A stretch of DNA of 64,000 bases from Methanobacteriota archaeon (lineage in GTDB: Archaea; Thermoplasmatota; Thermoplasmata; SG8-5; DAIRED01): positions 1-64,000 of the forward strand of contig JAZDNO010000009.1 in assembly GCA_043799545.1 (NCBI GenBank). The letters are read 5' to 3'. The translations under genes were made by a program, and so were the position numbers. Numbering within the stretch: the stretch's first letter is position 1; every line of letters begins with the position of its first letter. A model generated the notes under the pieces. The model did no database searches and had not been told where the DNA came from. It saw nothing but the letters and a program-made list of their open reading frames with translations. Positions 1,585 to 50,704 of the stretch are shown piece after piece.

Positions 1585-1620
1585 ACTTCGAGGTGGCACC
1601 GAAAAAAGAATAATGAGCCC

Positions 1621-1874
1621 TTTGTATAGATGAGGGCGAGAATATGCTTGATTGTTCTTTTCTCGCCCTCACTTCGGTCTTGCTCCGCGCACTCTGCCCA
1701 GCAAGTCCTCGTTCAAATCTCATCTCCATAAAAAAATGAATGGGCCCTTTGTATAAATGAGGGCGAGAATATGCTTGATTGTTCTTTTCTCGCCCTCACT
1801 TCGGTCTTGCTCCGCACACTCTGCCCAGCAAGTCCTCGTTCAAATCTCATCTCCATAAAAAAATGAATGGGCCC
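1621..1874. repeat. Two tandem 127-bp units ending in the tRNA-Ile 3' terminus
   Basis: 1621-1747 vs 1748-1874 have 2 mismatches; each unit has a 12-bp hairpin TGAGGGCGAGAA/TTCTCGCCCTCA and an inverted tRNA T-arm copy GTTCAAATCTCATC. Confidence 0.95.
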
Positions 1875-1942
1875 GATGAGATTTGAACTCATGACCTCCC
1901 GGTTATCAGCCGGGCGCTCCAACCGAGCTAAGCTACGGGCCC
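1868..1942 (-). tRNA. tRNA-Ile (GAT), CCA not encoded
   Basis: Acceptor GGGCCCG/CGGGCCC plus discriminator A; anticodon arm CCCGG-CTGATAA-CCGGG; T-loop TTCAAAT. Confidence 0.97.
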
Positions 1943-2045
1943 TCCTGTCAATGGTTTTCGTTCACGGTCCCTTCGCTTAGCTCTAGCCTCGGTGAGGTTC
2001 GGTTAGTGGCTTTCTCACCTTCGGACCAAGCTAAGCTACGGGCCC
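1943..2045 (-). repeat. Duplicated tRNA-Ile 5' end (21 nt, 1 mismatch) embedded in a long hairpin
   Basis: 2025-2045 matches 1922-1942; GCTTAGCT/AGCTAAGC and GGTGAG/CTCACC pairings. Confidence 0.9.
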
Positions 2046-2209
2046 GCCCTCAAGTTTGCTGGCAATGGCCTGGCATTCGTCAGCATCTCGGGAGTAAGGC
2101 CTCTTTTAATTTAAGGGTTGCTATGTTGGCGCCCCCGAACGGTGCTCCGCGGGGTTTCCTGCGAATGACTTATATATCCATCTGACTTTAACGCGGATGT
2201 GAGGCGCAC

Positions 2210-3961
2210 ATGGACATAACCGCGTTCCTGCTGATATTCATGGTCGCGACCATAGTCGCGGTCATCGCCAAATATATCAACTGGCCGTACACCATAGCGC
2301 TAGTGATATCCGGCCTCGTCGTCGGCATAATCGGAGTGTACGTCGGCTTCAAGGCTCCGGTCACGATAGACAAGAACCTCATCTTCCACATCCTCCTGCC
2401 GCCGCTGCTTTTCGAGGGGGCGCTGCACATGCCCCTGAAGCATCTGAGGGAGAACGCCAAAACTGTCTCGCTCCTCGCCGTCCCGGGGGTCATATTCTCG
2501 ACGATACTCGTCGGCTTCTTGGTGAACTTCTTCATCCCGGACATTCCACTCATCTACGCCATGCTGTTCGCAGCGATAATCATCCCGACCGACCCGGCGT
2601 CCGTCCTTGCCATCTACAAGGTGGCAAAGGTCCCTCAAAAGATGCGCACCATTGTAGAGGCAGAGAGCGTCTTCGATGACGGCATAGCCATCGTGCTTTA
2701 CAACGTAATACTCGTGCTGATTGTCAGCGGCAACCTGGACATAGTCAACGGTGCCTGGGAGTTCACCAAGCTATCGGTCATCGGGGTCGCCATCGGGCTG
2801 GTCTTCGGGTATGTGACCTTCCTCATAATGCGCCAGATAAACGACAAGTTCACAGAGGTCATGATAACCATCATCCTAGCCTTTGGCATCTTCGCTTTCG
2901 CCGAGATGCTAGGCGGGTCGGGGGTGTTCGCCGTGGTGATAGCGGGACTCATCCTGGGCAACTACGGGACCCGCTTCGCCATGGACCCGTCCACGAGGCT
3001 GTCCCTCGTGACCTTTTGGAGCTTCGCCGCCTTCCTAGTCAACTCGTTCCTGTTCATCATCGTGGGAATGAGCATCAACATCGGTTCGATTTGGAACAAC
3101 ATCACAATCGTCATCCTGGGCGTTCTAGCGCTATGGGCTGCCAGGGCGGTCACGATTTCTATAGTGGGAGGAATAGTCAACCGGAAGCGGGAGGAGCTGC
3201 CAGCCAAGTGGCGCTTCCTGCTGTGGTGGGGCGGCCTGCGGGGTGCGATACCGATTGCTCTGGCCCTCTCGATACCTCTCGTTCTGGCAAACGGCGACCC
3301 GTTCCCCCACAGGGACACCATAATAGCCGCCACGTTCGGGGCGGTCCTGTTCACGCTCATGATACAGGGGCTCACCCTGCGCCCGCTTGTCAAGAAGCTC
3401 GGTTTCAGGACGCAGCTCCAGGACGAGACGGACGTGCTGGACGCCGCGATGTCCAGGGACACGGCGGACGAGCTGAAAGAGATGCTGGCCGACGGCGTGC
3501 TGTCCCAGGAGGGTTACGAGTTGCTCGGAAAGAGCTTCGCTGCCGCCAACTCGCAGATGCTGTGCGATATCGGGGAGTGCGTCCAGAACCACGATTTCGT
3601 CCCAAAGGACGAGTATAAGAAGGCGGTTCGCGACGTTCTGGTCATGAAGCGTGCGTCCGTCCGCAAAGCCATCGACGACAATATGATCAGCGAGACAGTC
3701 GGGGGACGGCTCCTGTCTAAGATAGACGCGCAGATAGCATCGTCCAGCGTCGATGGGGTGTCGAATCCCCTTCCTGCTCCACGGGAGATATTCCAGAATA
3801 CCATCCTCAGGCAGAGGAAAGAGCGCATCTGCGGGAAGTGCAACACAGTCATCCAGAACGACGACAAGAGCCTGCGGTGCGCTTGCGGCACCGAGTACCA
3901 CGAGCAGTGCGCGGAAGGAATGAGTTGCTGCATGGCCTGCGACGCAAAGCTCAGGCACTAG
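2210..3961 (+). CDS. CPA1 (NhaP/NhaG-like) Na+/H+ antiporter with C-terminal RING/PHD-like Zn finger
   Basis: TDPASV, ESVFDDG and GGLRGA motifs; many TM helices; terminal CxxC-x12-CxC-x4-HxxC-x6-CxxC. Confidence 0.9.
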   Translation: MDITAFLLIFMVATIVAVIAKYINWPYTIALVISGLVVGIIGVYVGFKAPVTIDKNLIFHILLPPLLFEGALHMPLKHLRENAKTVSLLAVPGVIFSTILVGFLVNFFIPDIPLIYAMLFAAIIIPTDPASVLAIYKVAKVPQKMRTIVEAESVFDDGIAIVLYNVILVLIVSGNLDIVNGAWEFTKLSVIGVAIGLVFGYVTFLIMRQINDKFTEVMITIILAFGIFAFAEMLGGSGVFAVVIAGLILGNYGTRFAMDPSTRLSLVTFWSFAAFLVNSFLFIIVGMSINIGSIWNNITIVILGVLALWAARAVTISIVGGIVNRKREELPAKWRFLLWWGGLRGAIPIALALSIPLVLANGDPFPHRDTIIAATFGAVLFTLMIQGLTLRPLVKKLGFRTQLQDETDVLDAAMSRDTADELKEMLADGVLSQEGYELLGKSFAAANSQMLCDIGECVQNHDFVPKDEYKKAVRDVLVMKRASVRKAIDDNMISETVGGRLLSKIDAQIASSSVDGVSNPLPAPREIFQNTILRQRKERICGKCNTVIQNDDKSLRCACGTEYHEQCAEGMSCCMACDAKLRH

Positions 3962-8505: not shown

Positions 8506-8514
8506 GTATGCGAT

Positions 8515-16212: not shown

Positions 16213-17235
16213 TTAAATCTCGTCCAGGTCCACGCCGCAAAGCTTTCCCAGCTCGGCGTGCAGCACATTTATCCGTTCGGCGGCCTCGTTCAGGCCCTGG
16301 CGGCGGAACTTGGCGACGGTCGTTGCGACCTTAATCTTCCTCCCGCCACCGATCAGGTTGTCGGCGTGCGCCACCACCTTCTCCTCAAGCGTCATCGGGG
16401 TGTAGTCGCGCACCGGAAGGCCGAACCTCGCGGCCTCGTCCGGGGGGATGCCCGCGCCCATGTGGCGCTCGACGATGTGGACGATGGAAGTCGGCAAGCC
16501 CAATCGCTTGGCTATGCACCCGCCCTCCACCGCGTGCATTATTCCGTGCGTCTTCGAACGACCGATGTCGTGCAGTATGGCCCCCGCGCTGACAAGCTCC
16601 AAGTCGGCTCCGCAGAGCCTGCCGATTTGCATTGCCAGCTTCTCGACTGCGGTCACGTGGGCGATGACTTCTTTGGAACAACCCGCGCTCTTCATCAGGG
16701 CGAGCGCCTCCGCCCTCGACGGCACAGGCGCTACGCTGACGACCGTCTTTCCCCTCGGGTTCGGAACGACCCGCGTGCTGCCGGCCAGGTCGCTCCTCAG
16801 CCCTTCGCCGGACAGGAGCCGGTCCAGGAAAACCCCGAGCGCGGCCACCTCCGAGTGGGGCTGGTTGCCCACAGCGACGTTGAAATCGGCCATCTGATAA
16901 ACCTCGGCCGGGACCTTCTCCGCACCGACGATAATAAGGATGTCTGAATCCCTGGGAATCTTCGGCAGGGCGTCGTCCAGATGCTCGCCGTACATCGTCA
17001 GGTGTACTTTGACGCCCCTCCATTTCCTCATCTCGGTTTTCCAGCTGACGCCTGTCTTGATGCGGAAATCGCCGCCCCATCTCGGGACGAGCTTTTCTAT
17101 CGTCGCCTCAAGGCCAGCATCCTGCGTCGAGACCATGACTTCCGAGGCACCGAAAGCTCGCGCGGTGAGCGCAACGTGCGTCGTGACCCTCTTGTCCCTT
17201 GATGGACGGTGGCCTATCCTCAGAACCGATATCAT
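16213..17235 (-). CDS. trm56: tRNA (cytidine-56-2'-O)-methyltransferase with C-terminal HD domain
   Basis: LRIGHRPSRDKRVTTHV, HLTMYG and VGNQPHSEV motifs; HDIG, H and AHAD in the C-terminus. Confidence 0.95.
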   Translation of the reverse strand: MISVLRIGHRPSRDKRVTTHVALTARAFGASEVMVSTQDAGLEATIEKLVPRWGGDFRIKTGVSWKTEMRKWRGVKVHLTMYGEHLDDALPKIPRDSDILIIVGAEKVPAEVYQMADFNVAVGNQPHSEVAALGVFLDRLLSGEGLRSDLAGSTRVVPNPRGKTVVSVAPVPSRAEALALMKSAGCSKEVIAHVTAVEKLAMQIGRLCGADLELVSAGAILHDIGRSKTHGIMHAVEGGCIAKRLGLPTSIVHIVERHMGAGIPPDEAARFGLPVRDYTPMTLEEKVVAHADNLIGGGRKIKVATTVAKFRRQGLNEAAERINVLHAELGKLCGVDLDEI

Positions 17236-18438: not shown

Positions 18439-18632
18439 GCCGAGGTAGCTCGGGATGCGACCGGGGTCGCAGACCGCGCGGACGAGCTGGCCAGCGTGCG
18501 AGGAGCTCGTCCAGCGCCGAGGGTTGCAGCAGCAACCCGAGGGCTACCGAATAAAAGCGTTAAGAAGCCGAGGTAGCTTGCGAGGGCGAACGAATTCGCC
18601 GAGCAAAAACCTCGGCTAGCCGATAGCAAAGT
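18439..18632 (+). repeat. Two partial copies of the tRNA-Ser(GGA) 5' end within hairpins
   Basis: GCCGAGGTAGCT at 18439 and 18567 vs tRNA GCCGAGGTGGCT at 18633; REP-like GGACGAGCT..AGCTCGTCC at 18480-18512. Confidence 0.85.
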
Positions 18633-18741
18633 GCCGAGGTGGCTCAGCCCGGTAAGGCGCGAGCCTGGAATCTCCCGCTTCGGCGGGAGGCTGAGAGCTC
18701 GTGGGGGCAACCCCTCGGGAGTTCAAATCTCCCCCTCGGCG
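18633..18741 (+). tRNA. tRNA-Ser (GGA) with 25-nt intron (18671-18695)
   Basis: GCCGAGG/CCTCGGC plus G discriminator, CGAGC/GCTCG anticodon stem, long variable arm, intron at 37/38. Confidence 0.93.
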
Positions 18742-18765
18742 CTCATTTTATATTTATTCTGATAC

Positions 18766-18830
18766 GCGCCGAGGGGAGACTAAATCTTTGGTGGCATTTT
18801 GCGTTCATACGATTTAGTCTTGCCTTCGGT
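18766..18830. repeat. Inverted copy of tRNA-Ser 3' end plus AGACTAAATC/GATTTAGTCT hairpin
   Basis: GCGCCGAGGGGAGA complements TCTCCCCCTCGGCGC with one bulge; near-identical motif at 50595. Confidence 0.85.
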
Positions 18831-19828: not shown

Positions 19829-19908
19829 TCAGTATTCTGTCCAACGAGAGGGCAATTGCTCAGCACCTCTCTCGAATGGAGTATCAATCTCTCAGTATTC
19901 TCTCCAAC
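19829..19908 (-). repeat. 17-bp duplication of the TFS 3' end with foldback spacer
   Basis: TCAGTATTCTGTCCAAC 19829-19845 vs TCAGTATTCTCTCCAAC 19892-19908. Confidence 0.8.
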
Positions 19909-20188
19909 TAGCCTTGCACTTGCAGCACCTGAATATCTTCGTCTCGGGCTCGTCGGACTTTCTTGTCTGGCGCAGGGTGTAGAACGCCTCGTTGTGGCCG
20001 CATTTGGGGCACTCGGCGGGCATCCTCGGCAGGACATCCTCCACATCCTCTAGGACAACGATTTCATGCTCCTTGCAGGCGCGGAGCTCCCCCTTCTCCT
20101 CGGGTGGCTTGGCTTCGGTGTTGCACTTCTTGCAGACCCACCTGCCATTTTCCCTCGTCAGGAGGCACTTGCACTTCTCGCAGAACAT
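19892..20188 (-). CDS. tfs: Transcription factor S (TFS/RpoM)
   Basis: MFCEKC..C..C Zn ribbon; CPKCGH..QTRKSDEPET..C..C. Confidence 0.95.
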   Translation of the reverse strand: MFCEKCKCLLTRENGRWVCKKCNTEAKPPEEKGELRACKEHEIVVLEDVEDVLPRMPAECPKCGHNEAFYTLRQTRKSDEPETKIFRCCKCKASWREY

Positions 20189-20278
20189 GCCCCGTCCATC
20201 ATGGGATAGGGATATAACTTTTTCGGGGGCGCGTGCAAACGTTATAATACGACGGCGGTGCTTACTGGTATGAGAAAC

Positions 20279-20518
20279 ATGGAACGAGTTTACGTTCTTA
20301 TGGACGTCGAGCGCACGAAACTGGACCTTGCGATGGCAGCTCTGGGTGAGATACCCGGAGTCGTGAGAGTCGACCCGGTCACCGGCGCGCACGACCTGGT
20401 CGTGATCGTGGACGGAGAAGACCTGCCCAAGCTCCTGGGCAGCGTAATAAGGAGGCTGAGGGACGTTGACGGCGTGAAGGCCACGGAGACCCTGGTCGCG
20501 ATAAAACCGCCCCGCTAA
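20279..20518 (+). CDS. Lrp/AsnC ligand-binding (RAM) domain protein
   Basis: IPGV....VTGAHDLVV and GVKATETL motifs. Confidence 0.85.
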   Translation: MERVYVLMDVERTKLDLAMAALGEIPGVVRVDPVTGAHDLVVIVDGEDLPKLLGSVIRRLRDVDGVKATETLVAIKPPR

Positions 20519-20625
20519 GCTGCAAAAGGTTGAAATACCAGAAGCCACTACGCCTTTTCGCCCGAGGCGCGAAAGCGAGTAATCGGTTTTGCATCTAGGG
20601 CAGTAAATAGAACGGAGGAATATAA

Positions 20626-22267: not shown

Positions 22268-24475
22268 CTACTTGCCCAGAGCCTCGACAAAAGCCTTCCC
22301 GATTTTCCCTTTCTTCTCTTCTTTCTTCTCTTTCGACTGCTCCCTGAGCTTGGCAGCCACTTCCGTGTCGCCGGCTGCCTCGAGCGCATCTGCCAGAACC
22401 CCCGAGGCATCGTTGGAATCGGGCTCCATTTTAAGGGCTTCCCTCGCGCAGACGACCCCCATCTTCGGCTTTCCCAATCGGATGTGAACCTTCGCCCTGG
22501 CGGTCCAGGCGTTCGAGCCTGCTCCCGTGCCTATCGCAGCGTCCAGCGCCTTCGCGGAGCCTTTCAGGTCGCCCGACGCCAGCCGAGCCTCGCCAAGCCC
22601 GAGCCAAGCGTCGCCGAAAGAGTCGTTTGATTTGAGAGCTGACTCGAACGCCGCAACCGCGTCGGTGTTGGCGCCGGCAGCCAACAGCACGTTGCCCTTT
22701 GCCACAAGCTCGGACGGCGTCTTGGCATCGAAAGCCAGCGCGGCCTTTGCTGCCCCATGTATTTTGCCGAGGGAAATAAGCGCCCTCGCGAGAGACAAAC
22801 TGGCCCCGCGGTCCCCGGCGTCGGCCGCCGCTTCCAGCTTCTGCGCAGCCTCGGCGTCCCGGCCCAACTCCAGTAGCGCCTCGCCTTCCGCGACGCCTAT
22901 AGACGGGTGGATAATGGACAGGCTCCTGGCCTCCTCGCAGGCCTTCAGAGCCTCCTGCGCGTCGCCCATGCCGAGGAGCAGGCGCGCCTTGGTCGCCCAC
23001 GGCTTCGGGTCATCCGGGGCGAACGGAACCCGCGCATCGACGCAGACCAGCGCGTCCCTGTATCTCTTCAGCGTCGTCGTGAGCTCCTCCTTCTCCTGGA
23101 GAAGCTTGGGGTCGGGGGAGCCGCCCATCAGGTAGTCTATCGCGCGCAATGCTTCGTTCCTGCAGAGAGCAGCCTCGGCGTGGTTGCCGACGAGCACCAT
23201 CATCTTCGCCCTCATCTCCCAGGCCTCCACGAACGCGGGATTGAGGGATATTGCGTTGTTCAGCGCGTCTATGGCTTCGTCCGGCCTGCCGAGCCATTCT
23301 AGGACCTCCGCCTTTGCGAACCACGAGTGGTCGTAGTTCGGGTTCAGCTCCAGCGATTGGATGATGAGCTCCAGCCCCTCGTCCAGCTCCCCGAGCCTGG
23401 CCACGTCGTGGCCTTTGGCGTAGAGCGCGTAGTCGAAGTCGGGCCGAATCTCCAGCGAGCGCGAGTGGTACGGTATCGCCTCGGAGTATTTCACCATCTT
23501 GTCAAGAGCGTTCCCTATGTTGTTCCAGGCTATCTCGTAGTCCGGCATGACATCTATGGCCTTCTCGAAATACGGGATGCTCTCCTCCCATCGGTCCAGG
23601 TTGTAGAGGGCGTTGCCGAGGTTGTTCCACACGACCTCGTCGCCGGCGTCCAGCTCGACGACCTTTCTGTAGCATTCCACAGCCCGTTCCAGCTGGCCAG
23701 ATGCATGGTAGGTGTAGCCCTTGTTGTACCACGCGTGCTTGTAGGCCGGGTCTATCTCTATGGCCTGGTCGTAGCTGTCCACTGCCTCGGAGTAGAGCCC
23801 GAGCATGAAATATGTGAAGCCCTTGTTGTTCCACGCCTCGGCGTTGCCTGGGTCGAGGCGGATGACCTGCTCGAACGCCCGTATCGCGTCGTCCCACCGC
23901 TCCATGGCGTAGTAGGCGTTGCCGAGAAGGTTCCAGGCGTCCAAGTTTTCCGGGTCTATCTCGAGGGCGATGTCGTACGCCTCTATCGCGCCCTCCGAGT
24001 CTCCCGTCTGTTCCAGCAGCTGGCCCTTGCGCATCCAGTGCGCCTGGTCGTCCGGCTCCGTCTCCAGGAGGTCTTCGAAGATGTCCAGCGCCTCGTCGGC
24101 CTGGCCCATCTGCACGAGCGCAGACGCCTTGTCGTGCCAGGCGGCCACGTTGTTCGGGTTCAGCTCTATGGCGGTGTCGTACGCATCCAGGGACTCGTCT
24201 TGCTTGCCGAGGTAGCACAGGGTGTTCCCCTTGTTGTGCCAGGCGGTGTCATACGCCGGGTCGATGGCGATCGCGCGCTCGTACCAGGAAAGCGCCTCGT
24301 CGTGGCGCCCCACGGCATCCAGCGCGACGCCGAGATTGTTGTTCAGTACCGCGTCCTCGGGGAAGCGGGTCAGCGCGGCCTCGAAGCGCTCGATGGCCTC
24401 CGGGTACATCCCGTGGTCGCACAGGGTCGTCCCGCGCAGGTAGTCATCGTCCTCCTCCAGTTCCTCCTGCGTCAG
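22268..24475 (-). CDS. TPR-repeat protein (start uncertain: CTG 24475 or ATG 24409)
   Basis: Consecutive TPRs (AW.NKG..L..LG...EA...YD.AIEIDP); the tracked extension to 24853 lies inside the DHH gene. Confidence 0.85.
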   Translation of the reverse strand: MTQEELEEDDDYLRGTTLCDHGMYPEAIERFEAALTRFPEDAVLNNNLGVALDAVGRHDEALSWYERAIAIDPAYDTAWHNKGNTLCYLGKQDESLDAYDTAIELNPNNVAAWHDKASALVQMGQADEALDIFEDLLETEPDDQAHWMRKGQLLEQTGDSEGAIEAYDIALEIDPENLDAWNLLGNAYYAMERWDDAIRAFEQVIRLDPGNAEAWNNKGFTYFMLGLYSEAVDSYDQAIEIDPAYKHAWYNKGYTYHASGQLERAVECYRKVVELDAGDEVVWNNLGNALYNLDRWEESIPYFEKAIDVMPDYEIAWNNIGNALDKMVKYSEAIPYHSRSLEIRPDFDYALYAKGHDVARLGELDEGLELIIQSLELNPNYDHSWFAKAEVLEWLGRPDEAIDALNNAISLNPAFVEAWEMRAKMMVLVGNHAEAALCRNEALRAIDYLMGGSPDPKLLQEKEELTTTLKRYRDALVCVDARVPFAPDDPKPWATKARLLLGMGDAQEALKACEEARSLSIIHPSIGVAEGEALLELGRDAEAAQKLEAAADAGDRGASLSLARALISLGKIHGAAKAALAFDAKTPSELVAKGNVLLAAGANTDAVAAFESALKSNDSFGDAWLGLGEARLASGDLKGSAKALDAAIGTGAGSNAWTARAKVHIRLGKPKMGVVCAREALKMEPDSNDASGVLADALEAAGDTEVAAKLREQSKEKKEEKKGKIGKAFVEALGK

Positions 24476-25905
24476 CTCCCCGCCCCCAGCTGCTTTCTGA
24501 CGAGTTCCGACGCTATGCCCAAAAACTCCATCTCCCTGCCGGCTGGCACCGTCGCCCCGGCCGCTATGTTGTGGCCGCCGCCGAACCCGCCGACGCGCTC
24601 CGAGGCCGCCTTCATTATCGCGGAGAGGTCCAGCCCCCTGGCCACCATCTCCCTGGTGCCCCGTGCGGAGACCTTGACTCCGTCGTCGGCCCGCGCCAGT
24701 CCGAAAATCGGCACGTCGCGCCGCGCCCCGTCCGAATTGAGGGCCATGCCCGCCACCGTCCCGACGACGCTGTCCATGATTCTGTCGCCAGCATCGAAAT
24801 ACTGCAGGCCGTCCATCCCGTTGATGCCCACGTCGCGCACGACCTGAAGGCAATCGACCAGGTTGCGCCTGTGCCCCTGCTGGAGTCCGTAGGCCTCCTG
24901 GAGGATTTTTCCCCTGTCGCCCATCGCCACGCCGAGGCCGATATCGCCCTTCTCATAACGGCCACATGAATTGAGCAGGGTCGCAAACTCCTTCGCGTCG
25001 TGGAGGGGCGTACCTGGCTCCTCCTCGGTAAGGATGTAAACCTCCGAGGTGAGCTTCGAAGGTTGGTCGTGCTTGGCCAGCAGGGCTTCGAGGCGCTGGA
25101 TAATCCGCATCCTCTCCCCCCGGTTGAGGTCTATCCACCTGCGCCAGTTCTCCCCGTCGCGGAGCTTTATCTTGGCGTCTATCATGAACCTGATGCAGGC
25201 CTCCTCGTCGTTTGCCAGTCCGGGAAGCTTCGGGTCGGACTGGTACTGAAGCATCTTGTATGCCGGGCGCGTCTCCCTGCCGAAGAACGAGATGTCCTCC
25301 ATCGCCTCGACGAGGCCTGTCTTCCTGGCATCTTCGAGTATGCCTGCGTTGAGCCCGCCCAGCTTCCCGGTGCTCCGGTCCTGGAGGTCTCCGACCGCGC
25401 CGATGATGGCTATCGGCGAAAGCATGACGTTTCGCGGGTCGATTGACTTGGCCACCAGATATGCCGCTCCGGCTCCGCTGAGCTCCCTGCCCCCGTCGAG
25501 CCCGATGAGGTGGGGGTTGACTTGCGGAATCGTGGAATCTATAACGTCGAGGGCTTCGGCCAGCCTCGTGAGGTCCATCCTCTGCGCCGCGGTCGGCTCG
25601 CCTCCGGCCGATGGGACGTGGTGGTCGGTGATTATCGCATCCAACCCCTTCAGCATGGGAAGCTGGCCGCTGCCGAGGTCAGTGAGCCAAATCAGCCGCT
25701 TCTCGGCGCGGAGCGCCGCTGCGGCTGGCTCGTCGAGCTTCTTGAGAAATCGAATCTCATATGGAACAGATAGGGCTTCCAGCGTCCTGGATGCTATGGC
25801 TCCCGCGCATATCCCGTCTGCGTCGATATGGGTTACGACGATGGCGGACTTCGCAGTGCGGACGGCTTCGGCGGCGCGCGCTATCTCGTTGTCGAGTATG
25901 CTCAT
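24472..25905 (-). CDS. RecJ-like DHH/DHHA1 exonuclease
   Basis: THIDADG, TDLGSG, DHH, GDLQ and GGGHNIAAGA motifs. Confidence 0.93.
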   Translation of the reverse strand: MSILDNEIARAAEAVRTAKSAIVVTHIDADGICAGAIASRTLEALSVPYEIRFLKKLDEPAAAALRAEKRLIWLTDLGSGQLPMLKGLDAIITDHHVPSAGGEPTAAQRMDLTRLAEALDVIDSTIPQVNPHLIGLDGGRELSGAGAAYLVAKSIDPRNVMLSPIAIIGAVGDLQDRSTGKLGGLNAGILEDARKTGLVEAMEDISFFGRETRPAYKMLQYQSDPKLPGLANDEEACIRFMIDAKIKLRDGENWRRWIDLNRGERMRIIQRLEALLAKHDQPSKLTSEVYILTEEEPGTPLHDAKEFATLLNSCGRYEKGDIGLGVAMGDRGKILQEAYGLQQGHRRNLVDCLQVVRDVGINGMDGLQYFDAGDRIMDSVVGTVAGMALNSDGARRDVPIFGLARADDGVKVSARGTREMVARGLDLSAIMKAASERVGGFGGGHNIAAGATVPAGREMEFLGIASELVRKQLGAGS

Positions 25906-31181: not shown

Positions 31182-31185
31182 GCGT

Positions 31186-35945: not shown

Positions 35946-36039
35946 CGAGCCAGTCAATCATTCGCTGATGACCCACCGAGTCAATTGCCAGCATTCGGTG
36001 TGGCTCGAAAGGGTCAATCGCCTTATTCGCTGATGACCC
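35946..36039 (-). repeat. 15-bp duplication of the RAD55-like gene 3' end with foldback spacer
   Basis: ATTCGCTGATGACCC at 35960-35974 and 36025-36039; inverted CGAGCCA/TGGCTCG. Confidence 0.85.
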
Positions 36040-36724
36040 TCGTGGCCCTGAACACCCCGTCCTGGAACAACAGCGTGTAGTAGTTCGGGCTGTGCGTGGT
36101 CGAGCGCATCTTCACGCACCTGATTCGCCTGGTGACGTTCACATCGTCGACCTTCTCCATCTTCAAGTGGATTATACCGTCCGCCAGGAAGTCCTCGTCG
36201 TGGTTGGCGTACGTGTCTGAACCGGTCTTCATCTCCGAGATTATGAACGTGGTGACCTTCAATTCCCTCAGCCACTCGAAAAAGTGGAACAGCTCCGTCC
36301 GCGGGTTCTCGAACTCGGCGAGCATCTCCAGTATCGGCAGCGAGTCTATGACCAGAATCTTGTAATCGAGGCTCTCCTTGACGTTCTGAGCGTAGGTCTT
36401 GAATATCTGCATCCACGTCTGCTGGCCGAGCTTCTCCAGGTTCTTGCGGATGAGGGCCAGGTCGACTATGCTCACGCGCGACTCCACGTCCGCGGGGTCC
36501 ATCCCCATCGAGGCCATCTGCTGGCAGAGGCTGTCCCGACCCTGCTCAAGCGTGATGTAGACTCCGATGCGGTTCTCCTCCTTCGCGTTGTGAAAGAGAG
36601 TATAGAAGACTATGGAGGACTTCAGGGTTCCGGGCTCGCCCGCGACCAGGACTATGTTCCCCTCTGGAACGCCACCGGCCATCTTCTCGTCAAATCCCTG
36701 GATGTGAGTCGGGATGCGTATCAT
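36023..36724 (-). CDS. RAD55/KaiC-like ATPase (second paralog)
   Basis: GFDEKMAGGVP, GEPGTLKS, LVIDSL, DGIIHL and KMR motifs. Confidence 0.9.
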   Translation of the reverse strand: MIRIPTHIQGFDEKMAGGVPEGNIVLVAGEPGTLKSSIVFYTLFHNAKEENRIGVYITLEQGRDSLCQQMASMGMDPADVESRVSIVDLALIRKNLEKLGQQTWMQIFKTYAQNVKESLDYKILVIDSLPILEMLAEFENPRTELFHFFEWLRELKVTTFIISEMKTGSDTYANHDEDFLADGIIHLKMEKVDDVNVTRRIRCVKMRSTTHSPNYYTLLFQDGVFRATRVISE

Positions 36725-36773
36725 TTTCAATCGCCGAAGTAAAAGCGGTCTTCGTGGTATATAATTGTTTCCA

Positions 36774-38654
36774 TCAAACGTTGTTACTGCGCTTCGGAGC
36801 GGCTTTCCCGCCATTCTTCCCGCGCACGAGCGGGGCCGCCTTGAGCCAGTCGATGTCGGACATGTATAGCTTGCGCATGTCGTCGACCCCGTATGTCACC
36901 ATCGCCAGGCGCTCCAGCCCGAACCCCCAGGCGATCACTGGATGCTTAATGCCGAACGGCGCCGTGACCTCCGGCCTGAAGATGCCCGACCCTCCGAGCT
37001 CCATCCAGCGCCCGGCGAAGTTGACCTCGCAATCCATGCTCGGCTCCGTATAAGGGTAGTAACTGGGCCTGACGCGCCATTCCTTGCATCCCAGGCGCTC
37101 CAGGAACTCCGCCAGCATCCCCTTCAACATCCCGAGGGATGCCCCCTTCTCCATGACCACCCCCTCCACCTGCGTGAACTCGGAGAGGTGCCGGGCGTCC
37201 GTGGCCTCGCGCCTGAAGACGCGGGAAACCGTGAACGTGCGAACGGGGGGGTCGGGGTGCTCGGCCAGGTAGCGGATGCTGTTGACAGTCGTATGGGTGC
37301 GCAGGATGGCCTTGCGCGCCATCTCCTCGTCCCACTTGCCCCCCCAGCCGCGCGAGCCCGCAATCCCCTTCTCGTGCACGCTGCGGATGACCTCGACAAT
37401 CTTGCGGTCTGGCAGCGGTACCTCCGACGGATTCGAAAGGAAGAAGGTGTCCTGCATGTCCCTTGCTGGATGGTCCTGCGGTATGAAGAGCGCGTCCATG
37501 TCCCAGAAGCACCCCTGAACGTAGTCCATGTCGACCTCCGTGAAGCCCATGTCCAGGAAGATTCTGCGGACTTCGCCGACCAGGCGGGCCATGGGGTGAC
37601 GCTTCCCGTTTTCCCCCACGGGGGCGAAAGTCCCCAGGTCGTAAGGCCGCACGCGGAGCCCGCGCCACCCGCCTGACCGGAGCAGCTCGGGGGTCATCTG
37701 CGAGACCTCCTCGACGTCCTCGATTCCGGCGGCCAGCGCCTTGTCCCCGTCCGGCGTCAGGCTGACCCACCTCATGACCTCCTCCCTTACCTTGAGCAGG
37801 TCCTGCCTGGACGAAAGCTGCTTGAGTGTGAATTCGTCGATGTCGCGCTGGTGAATCTCGCCCTCTGCCAGGCGTAATATCGTCTCCTCGTCCTTCCCCT
37901 TGCGTTCCAGGGCCAGCTTGCCATCCTCCGTCAGCTCTATTATCGTCTCCGCACCGGATTTCTGGATGCTCGCCCAGCCCTTGCGCTTGAGCCAGCCGAC
38001 GGCGATTGGCACCTCCTTTTCCGAGAGGTGGGCAGCCTTACCAAGCTCCGGCATCCGGATGCGACCGCGCTCCTTCTTCAGCGCCTTGATGGCCCTGCGC
38101 TCTGGCAGGTCTTGCTCGCCCGCCTTCTTGCTCGCTAGCGAATAGTACTTCTCGAGTGATTCCGAAAGAATCACCAGTCCCTTCGATTGGAGCCATGAGG
38201 AGGCGTTCATCACGTCGACCTGAGACATCAGGACAGAGGACGCGCGCTTGCCAGCCCCGCTCTTCGAGAGCTTCAGCACCTCCGCGCTGACCTTGGGAAC
38301 TGTGTCGCCCAGCATCTCCGCGAACGCCTTCCTCTGGAGGGGTACCTCGATGTCTATCCAAGTCGGGATTCCCTCCGACGAGACGAGCCTCGCGACTTCG
38401 ACGCGGTAGTCCTCCTTGGGCTCGGCAGCGAGGGCGGCGAGCGACCTGACCAGCTCGTTGACCCTCCGGTCGTCCGACTGCTGGCTTCCCGCGGAGAGCA
38501 CCTTGCGCACCTCGTCCCTTATCGCGCGCACCATCGGCTCTATCTCCGTCGGGACTGAGTTCTCTATGACCTGCCAAGGGGTCCCCGTTCCCTTGAGCTT
38601 TCCGAGCGCCTTTAGGACCTGGCGCTCAGCGCCGCTTAGCTCCTCGACTCTCAT
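36774..38654 (-). CDS. pheS: Phenylalanine-tRNA ligase alpha subunit with N-terminal insertion
   Basis: HPARDMQDTF, LRTHTT, FRRE, YYPYTEPS, WMELGGSG and GFGLER motifs. Confidence 0.97.
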   Translation of the reverse strand: MRVEELSGAERQVLKALGKLKGTGTPWQVIENSVPTEIEPMVRAIRDEVRKVLSAGSQQSDDRRVNELVRSLAALAAEPKEDYRVEVARLVSSEGIPTWIDIEVPLQRKAFAEMLGDTVPKVSAEVLKLSKSGAGKRASSVLMSQVDVMNASSWLQSKGLVILSESLEKYYSLASKKAGEQDLPERRAIKALKKERGRIRMPELGKAAHLSEKEVPIAVGWLKRKGWASIQKSGAETIIELTEDGKLALERKGKDEETILRLAEGEIHQRDIDEFTLKQLSSRQDLLKVREEVMRWVSLTPDGDKALAAGIEDVEEVSQMTPELLRSGGWRGLRVRPYDLGTFAPVGENGKRHPMARLVGEVRRIFLDMGFTEVDMDYVQGCFWDMDALFIPQDHPARDMQDTFFLSNPSEVPLPDRKIVEVIRSVHEKGIAGSRGWGGKWDEEMARKAILRTHTTVNSIRYLAEHPDPPVRTFTVSRVFRREATDARHLSEFTQVEGVVMEKGASLGMLKGMLAEFLERLGCKEWRVRPSYYPYTEPSMDCEVNFAGRWMELGGSGIFRPEVTAPFGIKHPVIAWGFGLERLAMVTYGVDDMRKLYMSDIDWLKAAPLVRGKNGGKAAPKRSNNV

Positions 38655-44673: not shown

Positions 44674-45204
44674 ATGGGTAAGTATAAGTTTATTACAGTT
44701 GCCACAACGATGTTTTGCGTTGCAATGATGATATTGCCAGCAGCGACTCCGGCGAAGGCCTACGTGCTGGAATACGGGCAGGACAAATTCACAATCGACG
44801 GAACCATGAAGTGCAGGAACGCTCAGGTTGCGATTTCGATGGAGTATGTGTTCCAATCCCTTCCGGCTCAGACGTCAGTACTGGTCGGAAACGTGGAGTA
44901 CATCCTCACGCTCGAAAACGTCATCTTCGGCGTGGATGACCCGAGCACGGCGATATACGATCCAGCGAGCATAACCTTCAACTTCGGACGCAACGGACGC
45001 TTACAAGGGCATGTCGAGGGCATTGCATTATACGTCCAGCCATCCCCGGACTATCCGGCTGGATGGGTGCCAGTCATCGGATACGGCCTCGTCGATTTCA
45101 GCGGCATCCTAAAGATTTCAGGAAACAATTATTCGCCGCTTAAGCTCGATGGCTGGTATACGACCATGTCATACTGGCCAGGTTCTGGCCCGGACCCTGC
45201 ATAA
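44674..45204 (+). CDS. Secreted hypothetical protein (176 aa)
   Basis: GGAGGTG RBS; signal peptide ending AKA; beta-rich mature part. Confidence 0.75.
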   Translation: MGKYKFITVATTMFCVAMMILPAATPAKAYVLEYGQDKFTIDGTMKCRNAQVAISMEYVFQSLPAQTSVLVGNVEYILTLENVIFGVDDPSTAIYDPASITFNFGRNGRLQGHVEGIALYVQPSPDYPAGWVPVIGYGLVDFSGILKISGNNYSPLKLDGWYTTMSYWPGSGPDPA

Positions 45205-45261
45205 CCGCAGTGCAATGGCGGGACAAAACCATTTTATCTTCTTTTTATATCCATGCATCCC

Positions 45262-46221: not shown

Positions 46222-46264
46222 TGGATGCGCAAGGTCTAACTCGGTGCGTTTCTGCCTAGCCACA

Positions 46265-47527: not shown

Positions 47528-47528
47528 C

Positions 47529-48368
47529 TCATCCTTTCTCCAGCCCGCACAGGGCCAGCATCCTCTCATCCAGCGGAACGGGTTTCGAGCCGTACGCCAT
47601 CTCCATCGTTTTGAAGAGCGGCCTGAACCCGAGCCGTCCGACCGCGCTGCAGGCCGTGCGGTTCGCCTCCGGAATCGAGACCCAGACCTCCGAGCCGGCC
47701 TCGACCTTCCCCAGGAGCGCGTCCATCAGGACAAGCCCCTGCCCCCCCTTGGATGCCCACGGCCCGGCTTCGTAACCAGTGCGCTCCGAGCCGCGCGCGT
47801 ACAGATAGCCTTCCACGGCGTCCCCGTCGACGCTCGCAAGGGCCAGCTCGGGAAATTCCCCCCGGAGTGATTTCAACATCCTTGTGCGGTCGGCTCGAAA
47901 GAGCCTCGCATCGAGTGAGTGAATTTCCTTGGCCAGCTTGTCGTCGACGTTGACGATCCCATGCCCGCGGCACGTTATGCCGGCCTTGCCGCTCATCGTC
48001 ACGAAGGCATCCCCCTTATGAAATCCGAGCCTCTCGTAGAACGGGACGACGCCCTCGTACGAGTACAAACGGATGTCCGTCGCGCCAGCGCCCTTCAGGT
48101 GCTGGATGCATGCGTTCGTCAGAGCCCGGCCGACACCAACCCTGCGGTGCCTGGAATCCACGACAACGTTGCCTATGATGCCCGTTGCGCCGAAAGCCAT
48201 GGCTGTGGCGAAGCCTTTCGGAACCCCGTCTTCCTCGCTCGCGAAGAATCCCCCGGGAAACAGTCGGAGCAGCCGCTCAGCGTCCGCGGCCTCGTAGCTC
48301 CATCCGGCGGCGTTGGCAAGCGCCACGAAGATGTCTATATCCCCGTCCTCCAGATTGCGCACAGTCAT
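47529..48368 (-). CDS. Two-domain GNAT acetyltransferase (YitH-like)
   Basis: VVVDSRHRRVGVG, FYERLGF; second domain DARLF..DR..GPW. Confidence 0.88.
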   Translation of the reverse strand: MTVRNLEDGDIDIFVALANAAGWSYEAADAERLLRLFPGGFFASEEDGVPKGFATAMAFGATGIIGNVVVDSRHRRVGVGRALTNACIQHLKGAGATDIRLYSYEGVVPFYERLGFHKGDAFVTMSGKAGITCRGHGIVNVDDKLAKEIHSLDARLFRADRTRMLKSLRGEFPELALASVDGDAVEGYLYARGSERTGYEAGPWASKGGQGLVLMDALLGKVEAGSEVWVSIPEANRTACSAVGRLGFRPLFKTMEMAYGSKPVPLDERMLALCGLEKG

Positions 48369-48524
48369 TCAAACACCCTTGACAGTCGGTTCGTCGCAGT
48401 CGTGATGGCCGTGGGTTATGTACGCTTTCTCCCCGCGCTGCATCTTCACCTGGCACGGGCCGAAACCGAAATCTTCCCCGCCGTACCAGAAGGCGCACTC
48501 CTTGCAGCGAAGACCTTTGGCCAT
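48369..48524 (-). CDS. Small Cys/His-rich protein (51 aa)
   Basis: CKECAFW..C..HGHHDC; stop abuts the GNAT start. Confidence 0.6.
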   Translation of the reverse strand: MAKGLRCKECAFWYGGEDFGFGPCQVKMQRGEKAYITHGHHDCDEPTVKGV

Positions 48525-48600
48525 CAGTTGGGATACGAATTGCGGGATACAAATAACTATTCCCCTGCCGCCAGCAATCTCACCGTGCGCGGGGCCTGCG

Positions 48601-50151
48601 TCACAGATGCGAGGCCGGGACAACGTTGCCTGCGTTCAAAATCCGCCGGGGGTCGAGCGCCTTCTTGACCGAAGCGATTTCCTCCATCCCCTTCCGCCCG
48701 TACATCAGCTCGATGTACGGCGTAGGCTTTCCGCGGACATCCAGAACCTTCTTTCCCATCCCGTGCTCCCCCGAAAGCGTGCCCCCGAGGGATACAGCAC
48801 GCTCCGCCAGCCCGACGTAGAGATTCTTCGCCATGGCAAGCTCTTCCGCGTTCTCGCTGATGAAGTTGAAATGGAGGTGGCAGTCTCCCGCATGCCCGAA
48901 GAGGACGAAATGCGCCCCCGGCCTCGGAAACGCCTTGCTGAACGCCGCTCCAGCGCTGCTGTAAGCTTCCATCATCTCCCCGAACCGGCCATCGGGAACG
49001 GCCATGTCCGTGCCCATCTTGTGGCTCCGGCGCTCGCGGAGGTAGGCGTTCACCCTGTCCGGCAGGGAGTGACGGAACTCCTTGAGCCCCCTGACGTCGC
49101 GCTCGTTGTTGGCGCACCAGTCCTCTGTCGAACCCAGCTCGCGCAGCCTCTTTTCGATAGGCGCGAGCGAGCTGGGCTCCCCGCACGCCATCTCGAAGAA
49201 TATCGCTCCCCCGGCGCCTTCCGGGACTTCCGGGTTCTCCTCGCGGATGAAACCGAGCGAATTCTCGTCGAAGTACTCCACCGAGAGAATCCCCTCCGCG
49301 CGCATGGGCCTCAGCCAGTCGGCGAACCTCATTGCCGAGTCACCCGTCCTGAAGAAAGCGATGTCGGAGGCTATGCCACCGGGCTTCGGCGCGAGACGCA
49401 ATTCCACCTGGGATATTGCACCGAGGATGCCCTCGCTTCCCACGAAGAGGTCCACGAGGTCCATCCCCGGTTTGGAGTACAGCCCGGCGTTGTGCTTGAC
49501 CGCTGGCATTTTGTAAGTCGGGATACCGAACCTGTACCGGTTGCCCTGCTCCGAGCGGAAGTCGAAGTATCCGTCGGGGCTGGCGCAGATTTTCCCCCGC
49601 TTGACGCCGAGCGTATCACCGTTGGTCAACACGACCCTCAAACCCTGGACCCATTCCCTCGTCGCGCCATAATTGAAGCATCTGGCCCCCGAAGCGTTCG
49701 TGGCGACCGTGCCCCCGACCTGAGCGGATGTCTCCGTCGGGTCTGGAGGATAAATCGCGGTCTTCGGCAGGGCTCCCGTCAACTCGAGCAGCGGGATGCC
49801 GGGCGGAACAACTGCCCTGAGCCCAGAGCGGTCGAGCAGGAACGACGAAGGCCCGGCCAGCCCAAGATATTCCACGCGCTCGAAGCCGTCCCGAGCTTCG
49901 ATGCGGACCATCTCCGCCATCGAGACGACGAGCCCGCCTGACTTGGGCACGCGCGCCCCGGTCACGCCCGTCCCCGCGCCCGAAACCGTCACCTTCTTCT
50001 TTTGAAGGCTGGCATCGCGCAGGATCTCTGCCAGCTCGCTCTCGCTCGCTGGGAAATAGACCGCTTCCACTGAACCCGGTTCGGCGTAGTGGGCGTTGCT
50101 CTCGTCGGTCAGGAATTCCTCGAACGCTTCGGAAGAGGTCTCGACGCGCAT
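48601..50151 (-). CDS. FAD-linked oxidoreductase (GlcD/D-lactate dehydrogenase family)
   Basis: GAGTG, PPDP, GGTVATNASG, GSEGILG, GHAGDCHLH, GEHGMG and LNAG motifs. Confidence 0.93.
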   Translation of the reverse strand: MRVETSSEAFEEFLTDESNAHYAEPGSVEAVYFPASESELAEILRDASLQKKKVTVSGAGTGVTGARVPKSGGLVVSMAEMVRIEARDGFERVEYLGLAGPSSFLLDRSGLRAVVPPGIPLLELTGALPKTAIYPPDPTETSAQVGGTVATNASGARCFNYGATREWVQGLRVVLTNGDTLGVKRGKICASPDGYFDFRSEQGNRYRFGIPTYKMPAVKHNAGLYSKPGMDLVDLFVGSEGILGAISQVELRLAPKPGGIASDIAFFRTGDSAMRFADWLRPMRAEGILSVEYFDENSLGFIREENPEVPEGAGGAIFFEMACGEPSSLAPIEKRLRELGSTEDWCANNERDVRGLKEFRHSLPDRVNAYLRERRSHKMGTDMAVPDGRFGEMMEAYSSAGAAFSKAFPRPGAHFVLFGHAGDCHLHFNFISENAEELAMAKNLYVGLAERAVSLGGTLSGEHGMGKKVLDVRGKPTPYIELMYGRKGMEEIASVKKALDPRRILNAGNVVPASHL

Positions 50152-50245
50152 CGGTCGGAGGAGAGCCCCCAAAGTAAAAACCTTTTCCGTTGATATGCGT
50201 GGAAATTATTATTATGGCTCAGTAATATGCCATTGTCAGTCATGT

Positions 50246-50454
50246 GCCGAGGTAACTAAGCCCGGTTTACGCCTGACGAGCAAGCTCGTCCGCGCCTCGT
50301 GGCTTCGCCACTTCGGAGGTGCCAGCCTGGCACTAAAACCTTTTATATGCCTAGGTAACTAAGCCCGGTTTACGCTGGACGAGCTGCGCTCGTCCGCGCC
50401 TCGTGGCTTCGCCACTTCGGAGGTGCCAGCTACTGGCACTAAAACCTTTGATAC
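50246..50454 (+). repeat. Two tandem 103/106-bp units made of interrupted tRNA-Ser(TGA) 5' halves
   Basis: tRNA nt 1-24, then a 47/48-nt hairpin insert, then AGGTGCCAGC, then inverted TGGCAC. Confidence 0.95.
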
Positions 50455-50569
50455 GCCGAGGTAACTAAGCCCGGTTTAAGGTGCCAGCCTTGAGTGCGCC
50501 AGAAAAAGAACTGGTGCCTGGCGAGCTGGTGGTGTCATCACCTCGGGAGTTCGAATCTCCCCCTCGGCG
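50455..50569 (+). tRNA. tRNA-Ser (TGA) with 29-nt intron (50495-50523)
   Basis: GCCGAGG/CCTCGGC plus G discriminator, CCAGC/GCTGG anticodon stem, long variable arm, intron at 37/38. Confidence 0.93.
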
Positions 50570-50570
50570 C

Positions 50571-50704
50571 TACACTTTTTTATCGCTTTCAATCGCGCCG
50601 AGGGGAGACTAATCTTTGCTGGTAGTAAGTAATAACCGATTAATCTTACCCTCAGAGACACACCAAATCCACGTTGCTAGTCTCTTCGGTCTCCCCCTCG
50701 GCGC
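50571..50704. repeat. 134-bp segment bounded by a 15-bp direct repeat of the tRNA 3' end, with an internal inverted copy
   Basis: TCTCCCCCTCGGCGC at 50556-50570 and 50690-50704; GCGCCGAGGGGAGAC at 50595-50609. Confidence 0.9.

Follow-up and report, generated by a model that had tools for sequence, protein, structure and literature searches.

Hairpin-rich mini-elements carrying copies of the adjacent gene end flank most tRNA genes of a Thermoplasmata archaeon

The tRNA genes of an archaeon of the class Thermoplasmata are flanked by short, hairpin-rich elements that contain direct and inverted copies of the ends of the genes they border. The stretch of DNA analysed, referred to here as the window, covers the initial 64 kb of contig C15 in a 2.06 Mb assembly (G000; 31 contigs, ~59% GC, 94% complete), and includes three tRNA genes. 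A first-pass annotation had described each of these as having direct copies of its 5' end upstream, and inverted copies of its 3' end downstream, around a host gene that always stays intact; all three loci are as described, and all three genes are intact. The pattern is real, extends genome-wide across tRNA genes, and is confined to certain lineages. We favour, with moderate confidence, the explanation that insertion elements of several families, ~45-140 nucleotides (nt) long, hairpin-rich, non-coding and non-autonomous, have settled in the flanks of stable-RNA genes, with arms kept matched to the neighbouring gene by templated copying.

Copies of tRNA gene ends across the genome and its relatives

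The first and last 28 nt of each tRNA gene were compared with 300 nt of flank, scoring exact copies of at least 10 nt, across a set of 43 genes comprising 41 Infernal hits and two intron-containing ARAGORN calls. As a cross-pairing control, each tRNA was set against the flanks of all other tRNAs. Direct copies of the 5' end were found upstream of 10 tRNAs (0.6 expected; up to 24 nt), direct copies of the 3' end downstream of 18 (1.2 expected; up to 22 nt), and inverted copies of the 3' end downstream of 21 (2.3 expected; up to 16 nt), all far above the control. At least one copy of the gene's own end was present at 32 of the 43 genes (~74%), leaving 11 without any, and the pattern is therefore not limited to the loci at which it was first seen. 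The positions of these copies were stereotyped, with inverted copies at +17 to +37, direct 3' copies at +67 to +140, and direct 5' copies at -76 to -139. The direct copies either begin precisely at tRNA position 1, or finish at the discriminator or encoded CCA.

The same test found copies at 29 of 40 tRNAs in a congener (G001), at 16 of 20 in a representative of another family of the order (G002), and at 16 of 27 in a representative of another order of the class (G029), where the exact copies were mostly direct, and imperfect inverted copies were apparent by inspection. Signals were weak in a further genome (G026), and none of the 21 tRNAs of a 100% complete relative in the class (G030) had a copy. 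Chance is ruled out both by this relative and by the cross-pairing control, and an assembly artefact by the recurrence of the same architecture, with diverged sequence, in four independent genomes.

Beyond tRNAs, an element of the second scaffold type described below (type B) lies behind the gene for the signal recognition particle (SRP) RNA (C20:16590-16900; locus 16590-16973), with its inverted copy being the reverse complement of the SRP RNA 3' end. The 5S rRNA gene of the same genome had neither end copies nor such an element. Hence the proposal that gene ends are copied genome-wide stands for stable-RNA genes, in the form of tRNAs and SRP RNA, but extends neither to 5S rRNA nor, with rare exceptions, to protein-coding genes.

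Anatomy, folding and turnover of the elements

Downstream of a tRNA, the elements are arranged in a common order. The gene end (X0) is followed by 16-36 nt of T-rich spacer resembling a terminator, then by the inverted copy (X') and a conserved hairpin; the element is completed by another hairpin or, alternatively, by a direct copy (X1). X' is copied from part of the T-arm and the acceptor 3' strand, or in some elements from CCA and the T-run, and sits 0-3 nt 5' of the first hairpin, where it is complementary to X0, 16-36 nt upstream. X1 repeats the last 7-22 nt of the gene, and pairs with X' into one long foldback. Elements upstream of tRNAs are the mirror image, running from the direct 5' copy through hairpins, sometimes an inverted 5' copy, and a AAAACcTTTGATA-like motif to the tRNA itself.

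The hairpin-rich scaffolds, of ~100 nt, belong to several families and are common to different tRNAs, with at least five families told apart downstream. In type A, found behind Ile, Arg and Gln genes and often arranged in ~126-nt tandem units, X' is followed by GA, the hairpin GGACNNGC..GCNNGTCC, GAAG, another hairpin and the last 7 nt of the tRNA. Type B, found behind three Leu genes, two Gly, two Val, Ala and Tyr, runs from X' through A, GGACNNNC, a conserved 26-nt loop and GNNNGTCC to a second hairpin. Type C consists of X', a hairpin and X1; type D contains the motif ..CTATGCTAGAGCATC..; and type E, formed by X', the hairpin AGACTAA(A)TC, CTTCGG and X1, is found behind the two Ser tRNAs of the window, Cys and Gln. 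In types A and B, representing at least 10 loci, X' is present without a direct copy. As a separate observation, the hairpin stem of the type B element behind the SRP RNA gene (GGCCTAGC/GCTAGGCC) resembles the terminal helix of SRP RNA.

Not all of the cores originally thought to recur between loci are informative. AGACTAA(A)TC occurs seven times in the genome, always near tRNAs, and GGACTAGC (8 of 25 copies near tRNAs, relative to 0.35 expected) and GGACTAAC (5 of 11, relative to 0.15 expected) are strongly linked to tRNAs, whereas GGACGAGC (354 copies) and CTTCGG (2114 copies) are so common that they say little by themselves, and were dropped as element markers. The end motif GATGCTCTAGCA, allowing two mismatches, was dropped as too noisy. 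The underlying suggestion of a family of miniature elements is nevertheless borne out by the existence of several families, by variable segments that always match the adjacent gene end, and by turnover between close relatives. Searches of Rfam and the open-access literature returned no named family with the full pattern.

The features of the window, together with the other loci discussed, are listed in Table 1. Upstream of tRNA-Ile, a direct copy of T1-21 at 2025-2045 matches at 20 of 21 positions (17 nt exactly, at 2029-2045), an inverted D-arm copy lies at 1975-1983, and the motif AAAACCATTGACAGGA abuts tRNA position +1. Downstream unit 1 of the same gene proceeds through a T-rich spacer, a 14-nt inverted copy of T55-68 (1838-1851), and the hairpins GGACTTGC..GCAAGACC and TGAGGGCGAGAA..TTCTCGCCCTCA, to a terminus formed by the last 7 nt of the tRNA (1741-1747); it has an orthologue in the congener, the inverted copy of which follows a C68-to-T change in the tRNA. 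Unit 2 has a 14-nt inverted T-arm copy at 1711-1724, and terminates in a degenerate tRNA end, GGGCTCA (1614-1620), then a T-run trailer. Upstream of tRNA-Ser(GGA) are the hairpin GGACGAGC..GCTCGTCC (18480-18512) and an inverted 5' copy, ACCTCGGC (18609-18616), that pairs with the copy at 18567 to close a hairpin (DNA fold z = -3.7 for 18567-18640). Downstream, a T-rich spacer is followed by an inverted 3' copy, CGCCGAGGGG (18767-18776), the hairpin AGACTAAATC..GATTTAGTCT (18777-18820) and CTTCGG, with the direct 3' copy being absent.

The third tRNA gene was called as Thr(GGT) by ARAGORN, although its anticodon loop, CU-UGA-GU, and long variable arm suggest, when read by hand, that it is Ser(UGA). 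Its upstream units reproduce tRNA positions 1-24 at 50246-50269 (24 nt) and positions 5-24 at 50353-50372 (20 nt), and each contains the GGACGAGC/GCTCGTCC hairpin, two more hairpins, tRNA positions 25-34/36 and AAAACCTTT(T/G)ATA. Downstream, a T-rich spacer, an inverted 3' copy (50596-50605), the hairpin AGACTAATC..GATTAATCT (50606-50646), a second hairpin and CTCTTCGG lead to a terminal repeat, in direct orientation, of the tRNA's final 14 nt (50690-50703), with which the inverted copy pairs in the DNA fold. The same family of downstream element is found behind tRNA-Cys and tRNA-Gln(CUG).

Table 1. Positions of the genes, elements, protein-gene ends, dispersed repeats and islands; coordinates without a contig prefix refer to the window.
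Feature	Position	Strand	Remarks
tRNA-Ile(GAU)	1868-1942	-	intact host gene; ARAGORN and Rfam tRNA model, 69.7 bits
tRNA-Ile upstream element	1943-2045	-	hairpins between 5' copy and tRNA
tRNA-Ile downstream unit 1, type A	1730-1867	-	DNA fold -29 kcal/mol, z = -5.8
tRNA-Ile downstream unit 2	1603-1729	-	tandem copy of unit 1, 95% identical over 127 nt
tRNA-Ser(GGA) with intron	18633-18741	+	intact; Rfam 39.4 bits; ARAGORN with introns allowed
tRNA-Ser(GGA) upstream, two units	18439-18632	+	5' copies at 18439-18455 and 18567-18583
tRNA-Ser(GGA) downstream element, type E	18742-18830	+	DNA fold z = -6.3
Class-II tRNA with intron	50455-50569	+	intact; Rfam tRNA 40 bits
tRNA 50455 upstream, two tandem units	50246-50454	+	~104 nt each, 92% identical
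tRNA 50455 downstream element, type E	50570-50703	+	DNA fold z = -3.3
Protein-gene end, open reading frame 19892-20548	19829-19911	-	fold weak, z = -2.3
Protein-gene end, open reading frame 36023-36814	35957-36041	-	folds weakly
Dispersed ~107-nt repeat, example	C8:7717-7823		
Dispersed ~107-nt repeat, example	C12:94105-94211		
Dispersed ~107-nt repeat, example	C11:3430-3536		
Trp island	C12:53960-74518		44% GC
Val island	C28:1-16000 with C25:1-3330		43.7% GC over C28:1-16000
Glu island	C10:219012-end with C22:1-699		far end at C22:699

The elements are DNA-level palindromes, rather than typical RNA genes. Those at the window tRNAs fold, as DNA, with z-scores of -3.3 to -6.3, and mean folding energies were -35.7 kcal/mol in sense and -35.4 kcal/mol in antisense across downstream elements (n = 78), and -48.0 and -47.8 kcal/mol respectively across upstream elements (n = 32). 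In 19 aligned type B hairpins, the 8-bp stem of hairpin 1 was 98% paired, with two-sided changes at five of the eight pairs, and one-sided (G-U) changes at none. It is because the stems are strictly Watson-Crick, without strand bias, that they are regarded as a feature of the DNA. In the Rfam search the tRNAs alone matched, with the remaining hits far under gathering scores, ruling out known structured RNA families. C/D-box and H/ACA guide RNAs were rejected too, as the scaffolds read without box motifs, and X' is contiguous and flanked by strand-neutral palindromes.

Comparison with the congener reveals that elements differ in both presence and type between the two genomes. The site at tRNA-Met is filled in G000 and empty in G001. 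The insert measures 101 nt, of which 16-17 nt duplicate the tRNA end, and past X1 the native trailer resumes. The downstream element of Leu(CAG) is missing from the congener, while Gln(CUG) and Cys have additional units between the tRNA and an older element. Filled and empty upstream sites were found at Thr(CGU), Gly(GCC), Ala(GGC) and Asp, with the native promoter kept alongside the displaced outer copy, and differing scaffold families occupy Thr-CGU, Thr-GGU, Gly-CCC and Pro-UGG in the two genomes. The array behind tRNA-Thr(CGU) contains a module with arms fitting tRNA-Thr(GGU) (C6:45800-45910), which looks like a cross-insertion between similar targets. Separately, beyond this array lies a DMT/EamA-like transporter gene with a His-rich tail (C6:45933-47003), and a further partial module (CAGTGGCT, spacer, GGGATTTGAAC) is found at C6:47250-47310, such that the transporter gene appears as if enclosed by modules.

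Where elements are retained, their copies follow the tRNA. The body of the orthologous Tyr element is ~10% diverged, and a T-to-C change in the T-stem of the tRNA is mirrored in both X' and X1; the copies in the Ile, Thr(GGU), Pro(UGG) and Leu(UAA) elements track tRNA changes in the same manner. Across all matched tRNA pairs between the two genomes (best match of at least 90% identity, mostly orthologues) with copies kept in both, seven tRNA substitutions were tracked by inverted copies, and ten by direct copies. This tracking in situ favours a templated component to the mechanism.

Protein-gene ends, islands and candidate enzymes

The first-pass annotation had also proposed that two protein genes share the pattern at their stop codons. 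Both cases are real. The last 20 nt of the open reading frame (ORF) at 19892-20548, including its TGA stop (19892-19911), are repeated at 19829-19848 (18 of 20 matched), with a 43-nt insert between; the longest exact run of 10 nt falls under the 12-nt threshold of the test described below. At the ORF at 36023-36814, GGGTCATCAGCGAAT (36025-36039) is repeated at 35960-35974, around an insert of ~49 nt, GATTGAC..TTCGAG..GCAATTGAC, that opens with a short inverted copy of the gene end. The two inserts, of 43-49 nt, are homologous (GATTGA..TTCGAG..GCAATTG), and are flanked by duplications of 15-20 nt ending at the stop codon. However, this insert has only two copies in the entire genome, both within the window.

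Nor does a general process operate at stop codons. When the last 30 nt of 1578 ORFs in the genome were compared with the 250 nt downstream, inverted copies of at least 10 nt were not enriched (12, relative to 11 in the control), and direct copies of at least 12 nt showed a marginal enrichment (four, relative to 0-1). These four correspond to the ORF at 36023, two insertions of a dispersed repeat, and one spurious ORF over a pseudo-tRNA. The dispersed repeat, ~107 nt long with the core CCTCGCTGCGCTGGC.., resembles transposable elements of the miniature inverted-repeat kind (MITEs). At least 18 copies are present, most of them located at the ends of genes; in four, the flanks are duplicated, over 66 nt (5' side of tRNA-Ala), 43 nt (end of a protein gene), 14 nt and 13 nt. 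Gene-end duplication by small insertions outside tRNAs therefore exists, but is rare.

The report that the window lacks a transposase or integrase is accurate, in that there was no integrase or Y1 transposase hit on the contig, but this is uninformative because three integrases lie directly behind tRNAs, and a conserved IS200-type TnpA is present, elsewhere in the genome. Of four tyrosine recombinases in total, the three in question are directly behind tRNA-Glu, tRNA-Trp and tRNA-Val, each in a low-GC island with an orphan copy of the same 14-16-nt tRNA end at its far end. These repeats begin at T59-60, like X1, and this shared extent suggests the direct copies could be products of attachment-site (att) recombination or target duplication. 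In all three cases, older mini-elements are found beyond the orphan copy, and therefore the islands entered at the tRNA-proximal site. None of the three islands has X' or a scaffold at its ends, ruling out the mini-elements being the fused ends of these large islands. Two of the three bear additional IS200-type TnpA genes.

The conserved IS200/IS605-type TnpA is encoded at C25:29915-30370 (L123:1416-1871), and matches the NCBIfam model transpos_IS200 with 109 bits, without reaching the cut-off for bacterial transposases associated with repetitive extragenic palindromes (REPs), known as RAYTs; its nearest structures are 2ec2 and 2a6m. Within the order, 15 of 21 genomes have the gene, most of them in one copy and a few with two or three hits. 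The genomes without it include several of the least complete, and also ones comparable to G010, such as G009 (83%). It is 55-89% identical between genomes (relatives L126-L137), and has a conserved upstream promoter motif, ACTTTCGCCCACCCC..TTTAAATAC. In G000, G001, G004 and G011, TnpA is followed by a conserved hairpin (TCCGCATT..AATGCGGA), the 5' part of a pseudo-tRNA-Leu, and then tRNA-Leu, with the variable arm of the pseudo-tRNA co-varying with that of the real tRNA-Leu.

Several other features of the window and genome were observed. The first 1600 nt of the window, at the contig start and just past the two tRNA-Ile trailer units, have a GC content of ~42%, relative to ~59% genome-wide, and contain small ORFs at 232-777 and 1209-1511, the sole Pfam signal being a weak, sub-threshold match to Cas8b_N; this may be the edge of an integrated island cut off by the contig end. 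In-frame tandem repeats with a period of 66-69 nt at 59600-61100, within a 1581-amino acid ORF (58875-63620, reverse strand), and with a period of 102 nt at 23500-24300, within the ORF at 22268-24853 (reverse strand), probably encode repeated domains in large surface proteins. No match to the model for archaeal RNase P RNA (RF00373) was obtained at E <= 0.001 in the 94% complete genome.

Candidate explanations and known systems

In the favoured explanation, insertion elements would land precisely at the outer edge of the mature RNA sequence. The direct copy would be formed upon insertion, as a long target duplication or att-type repeat; its extent (~T58-60 to the discriminator) equals that of the 14-16-nt repeats bounding the islands. 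Within the quasi-palindrome, copying templated by the constrained gene end, through either template switching during replication or conversion of short tracts, would preserve the complementarity of the inverted arm to that end. Perfect stems have been documented to arise and persist by template switching, via multi-nucleotide, two-sided changes (PMC8794818). Either a templated process or strong selection is needed for the inverted copy because the members of one scaffold family match more than 10 unrelated gene ends, and keep up in place with later substitutions in them; as the tRNA arm is under purifying selection, corrections would be fixed solely in the direction from tRNA to element. The complementarity of X' might additionally act as a DNA 'guide' for insertion, as in IS200/IS605. 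Overall, the shared scaffolds, indel polymorphism with precise empty sites, tRNA-proximal insertion, tandem accretion, lineage restriction and strand-neutral palindromes fit selfish elements better than a host function.

Multiple observations nevertheless weigh against this explanation. The copy boundaries coincide with the exact ends of the mature RNA, which is not obviously predicted by insertion acting on DNA only, and the distance from the segment paired with X' to the insertion point varies by family, unlike the fixed geometry of IS608. A further difficulty is how one scaffold family could have gained 10-14-nt complements of more than 10 unrelated gene ends, which include SRP RNA, despite it having no T-loop to seed pairing. 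Arrangements kept across families, such as the hairpin and pseudo-tRNA before tRNA-Leu, could reflect host function. Nor does any enzyme fit the distribution of the elements: tyrosine integrases are also present in the pattern-free G030, the 94% complete G029 had no Y1_Tnp hit yet has direct and imperfect inverted copies, and neither Cas1 (PF01867) nor reverse transcriptase (PF00078, RVT_1) had a match in the 94% complete G000. These last two results also led to the rejection of insertion by casposons or Cas1, for which the duplication geometry differs as well, and of retro-insertion primed by a mature tRNA, as X' lacks the complement of a non-encoded CCA.

It is possible, though unlikely, that the elements are REP/MITE-like derivatives mobilised in trans by the order's IS200/IS605-type Y1 (HUH) transposase, through guide-directed single-strand transposition. 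X0 might then, as a tentative assignment, be the left cleavage or target site, the spacer a linker, X' a long DNA guide, and the hairpin the subterminal palindrome to which TnpA binds, with X1 as the right cleavage site. This geometry matches that of IS608 at its left end, formed by target, linker of ~15 nt, guide and hairpin, and at its right end, formed by guide, hairpin and cleavage site. In IS608, DNA-DNA pairing occurs in the arrangement 'target, linker, guide, hairpin', and engineered guides of 12-17 nt work in vitro (PMC5934647). Guidance would account for type A and B elements having X' without a direct repeat, inexplicable by att or target-duplication models, and precise excision would match the observed empty site. 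Most genomes of families f1-f4 have the single Y1_Tnp gene, often beside a tRNA-Leu with the hairpin and pseudo-tRNA, and clear inverted copies were seen in this order only. Yet this correlation with the order amounts to a single phylogenetic event, and G029 retains copies without the transposase. Furthermore, the hairpins beside the TnpA gene are unlike those of the elements, the pairing register is offset from the insertion point by a variable distance (0-10 nt), and many tRNAs have elements on both strands, contrary to a strict lagging-strand bias. Should guidance operate, single-strand mini-elements with a 10-16-nt guide, re-templated from the end of the adjacent stable-RNA gene, might conceivably constitute a natural form of programmable DNA-guided insertion active across Thermoplasmata; such a system, itself doubtful, might be a long-guide relative of IS200/IS605 'peel and paste', or depend on an enzyme recognising the termini of mature RNA genes.

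Tyrosine recombinases offer another route, in which the elements would be att-bounded mini-cassettes: either cis-mobilisable remnants, similar to cis-mobilisable elements (CIMEs), or folded sites like those of attC and CTX phage. We consider it quite unlikely that the X'/X stem mimics a duplex tRNA end in this manner, with integration at the tRNA 3' (or 5') end and tandem accretion. Integration of a folded single-stranded site, as with CTX phage and attC, would leave the order 'direct, spacer, inverted, body, direct', which is the layout of the elements. Three integrase genes out of four lie against the 3' ends of tRNAs, the 44% GC islands are bounded by repeats of the same extent as X1, and the arrays are tandem with tRNA-proximal insertion; yet there are elements with X' and no direct repeat at all, and the large island ends have no X' or scaffold. 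Integrases are moreover present where the pattern is not (G030), a separate cassette specificity would be required for each of ~30 genes, and duplication of 5' ends is, to our knowledge, not a described habit of tRNA-targeting integrases. That integration leaves tRNA fragments is, nevertheless, a known general feature (PMC9897764). A role in the host, with the hairpins as termination or insulation signals, processing signals or acceptor-stem mimics kept matched by selection, seems improbable. It would be consistent with inverted and direct copies tracking tRNA substitutions, with copies starting and ending at the mature RNA ends, with the targets being highly expressed stable RNAs, SRP RNA included, and with some arrangements being kept across families. 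Opposed to this are the frequent presence/absence differences and family swapping inside one genus, the 11 of 43 tRNAs without any copy, stems lacking strand asymmetry or G-U pairs, the absence of matching Rfam families, and the T-run terminator between tRNA and X', which places X' mostly outside the tRNA transcript. The same terminators separate the parts that would be joined by split-tRNA, permuted-tRNA or bulge-helix-bulge processing, a reading prompted by the potential of the copies to pair as an outer acceptor stem, and set aside.

If mobile, as the favoured explanation of insertion with templated arms would have it, the elements would represent an undescribed selfish-DNA strategy, settling at the exact edges of the cell's most conserved genes while rebuilding or sparing the gene end, and keeping one arm matched to the gene end that they border. 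For annotation, fragments of pseudo-tRNAs, spurious tRNA calls and mistaken 'integration scars' could become explicable and avoidable. For the evolution of archaeal tRNA genes, the leaders, promoters and terminators of most tRNA genes in this genome are element-borne or displaced, and for the study of mechanism, dozens of independent loci show how an inverted repeat is homogenised, by templating, against a partner under constraint. There is possibly a technological interest, as long DNA guides for single-strand transposases have so far been engineered only. Because the pattern is restricted to certain lineages, and one genome is cleanly negative, it is feasible to identify the responsible enzyme by comparison.

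The elements share features with multiple known systems. As with integrase attL/attR sites and CIME remnants, direct repeats of tRNA 3' ends bound the insert at some loci, the gene remains intact, and arrays are tandem with tRNA-proximal entry; the genome's own integrase islands are bounded by the same 14-16-nt segment. Whereas the archaeal tRNA fragments previously documented were left by elements of 9-23 kb (PMC9897764), the inserts here are non-coding, only ~45-140 nt in length, and contain an inverted copy of the target, with many lacking a direct repeat. They also occur in mirror image at the 5' edge, affect ~74% of tRNAs, and have scaffolds common to different tRNAs. Casposons similarly insert at tRNA 3' ends through a Cas1 integrase, with a target duplication of similar size (14-15 bp) and the T-loop region within the target (PMC5137440). 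However, their duplication overlaps the tRNA by only 5 bp, and they are ~10 kb long, have their own terminal repeats, and depend on a Cas1 that had no match in this genome. The imperfect palindromes of integron attC and CTX phage attP fold such that the stem imitates the partner site, and form arrays of 'direct core, inverse core, direct core'; here, by contrast, the cassettes have no contents, each tRNA has a stem sequence of its own, and no integrase of the IntI type was identified.

Other similarities are to hairpin-forming transposable elements. Like IS200/IS605 elements and REP/REPIN-RAYT systems, these are non-coding hairpin units outside genes, without classical terminal inverted repeats, in an order with a conserved single-copy IS200-type TnpA, and the segment lying 5' of the hairpin, complementary to the flanking target, recalls the geometry of IS608, in which the target is recognised by DNA-DNA pairing. 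Unlike these systems, the putative guides are 10-16 nt, rather than the 4-5 nt of natural guides, the elements are gene-specific, as REPs are not, and the transposase is not present wherever the elements are (G029). Many of the elements also end in a 7-22-nt target copy, although this could instead be the right cleavage site. Classical MITEs are likewise small, structured, non-autonomous, multi-copy, intergenic and polymorphic in their presence, but they have fixed terminal inverted repeats, in place of arms copied from host genes that differ at every locus, and flanking duplications of a fixed 2-10 nt, rather than the 7-24 nt found here (up to 66 nt for the dispersed MITE). Finally, although quasi-palindrome template switching is a mutational process rather than an element, and leaves insertion, shared scaffolds and lineage restriction unexplained, it does explain the Watson-Crick stems, the clustered two-sided changes without G-U intermediates, and the manner in which one arm follows its constrained partner (PMC8794818).

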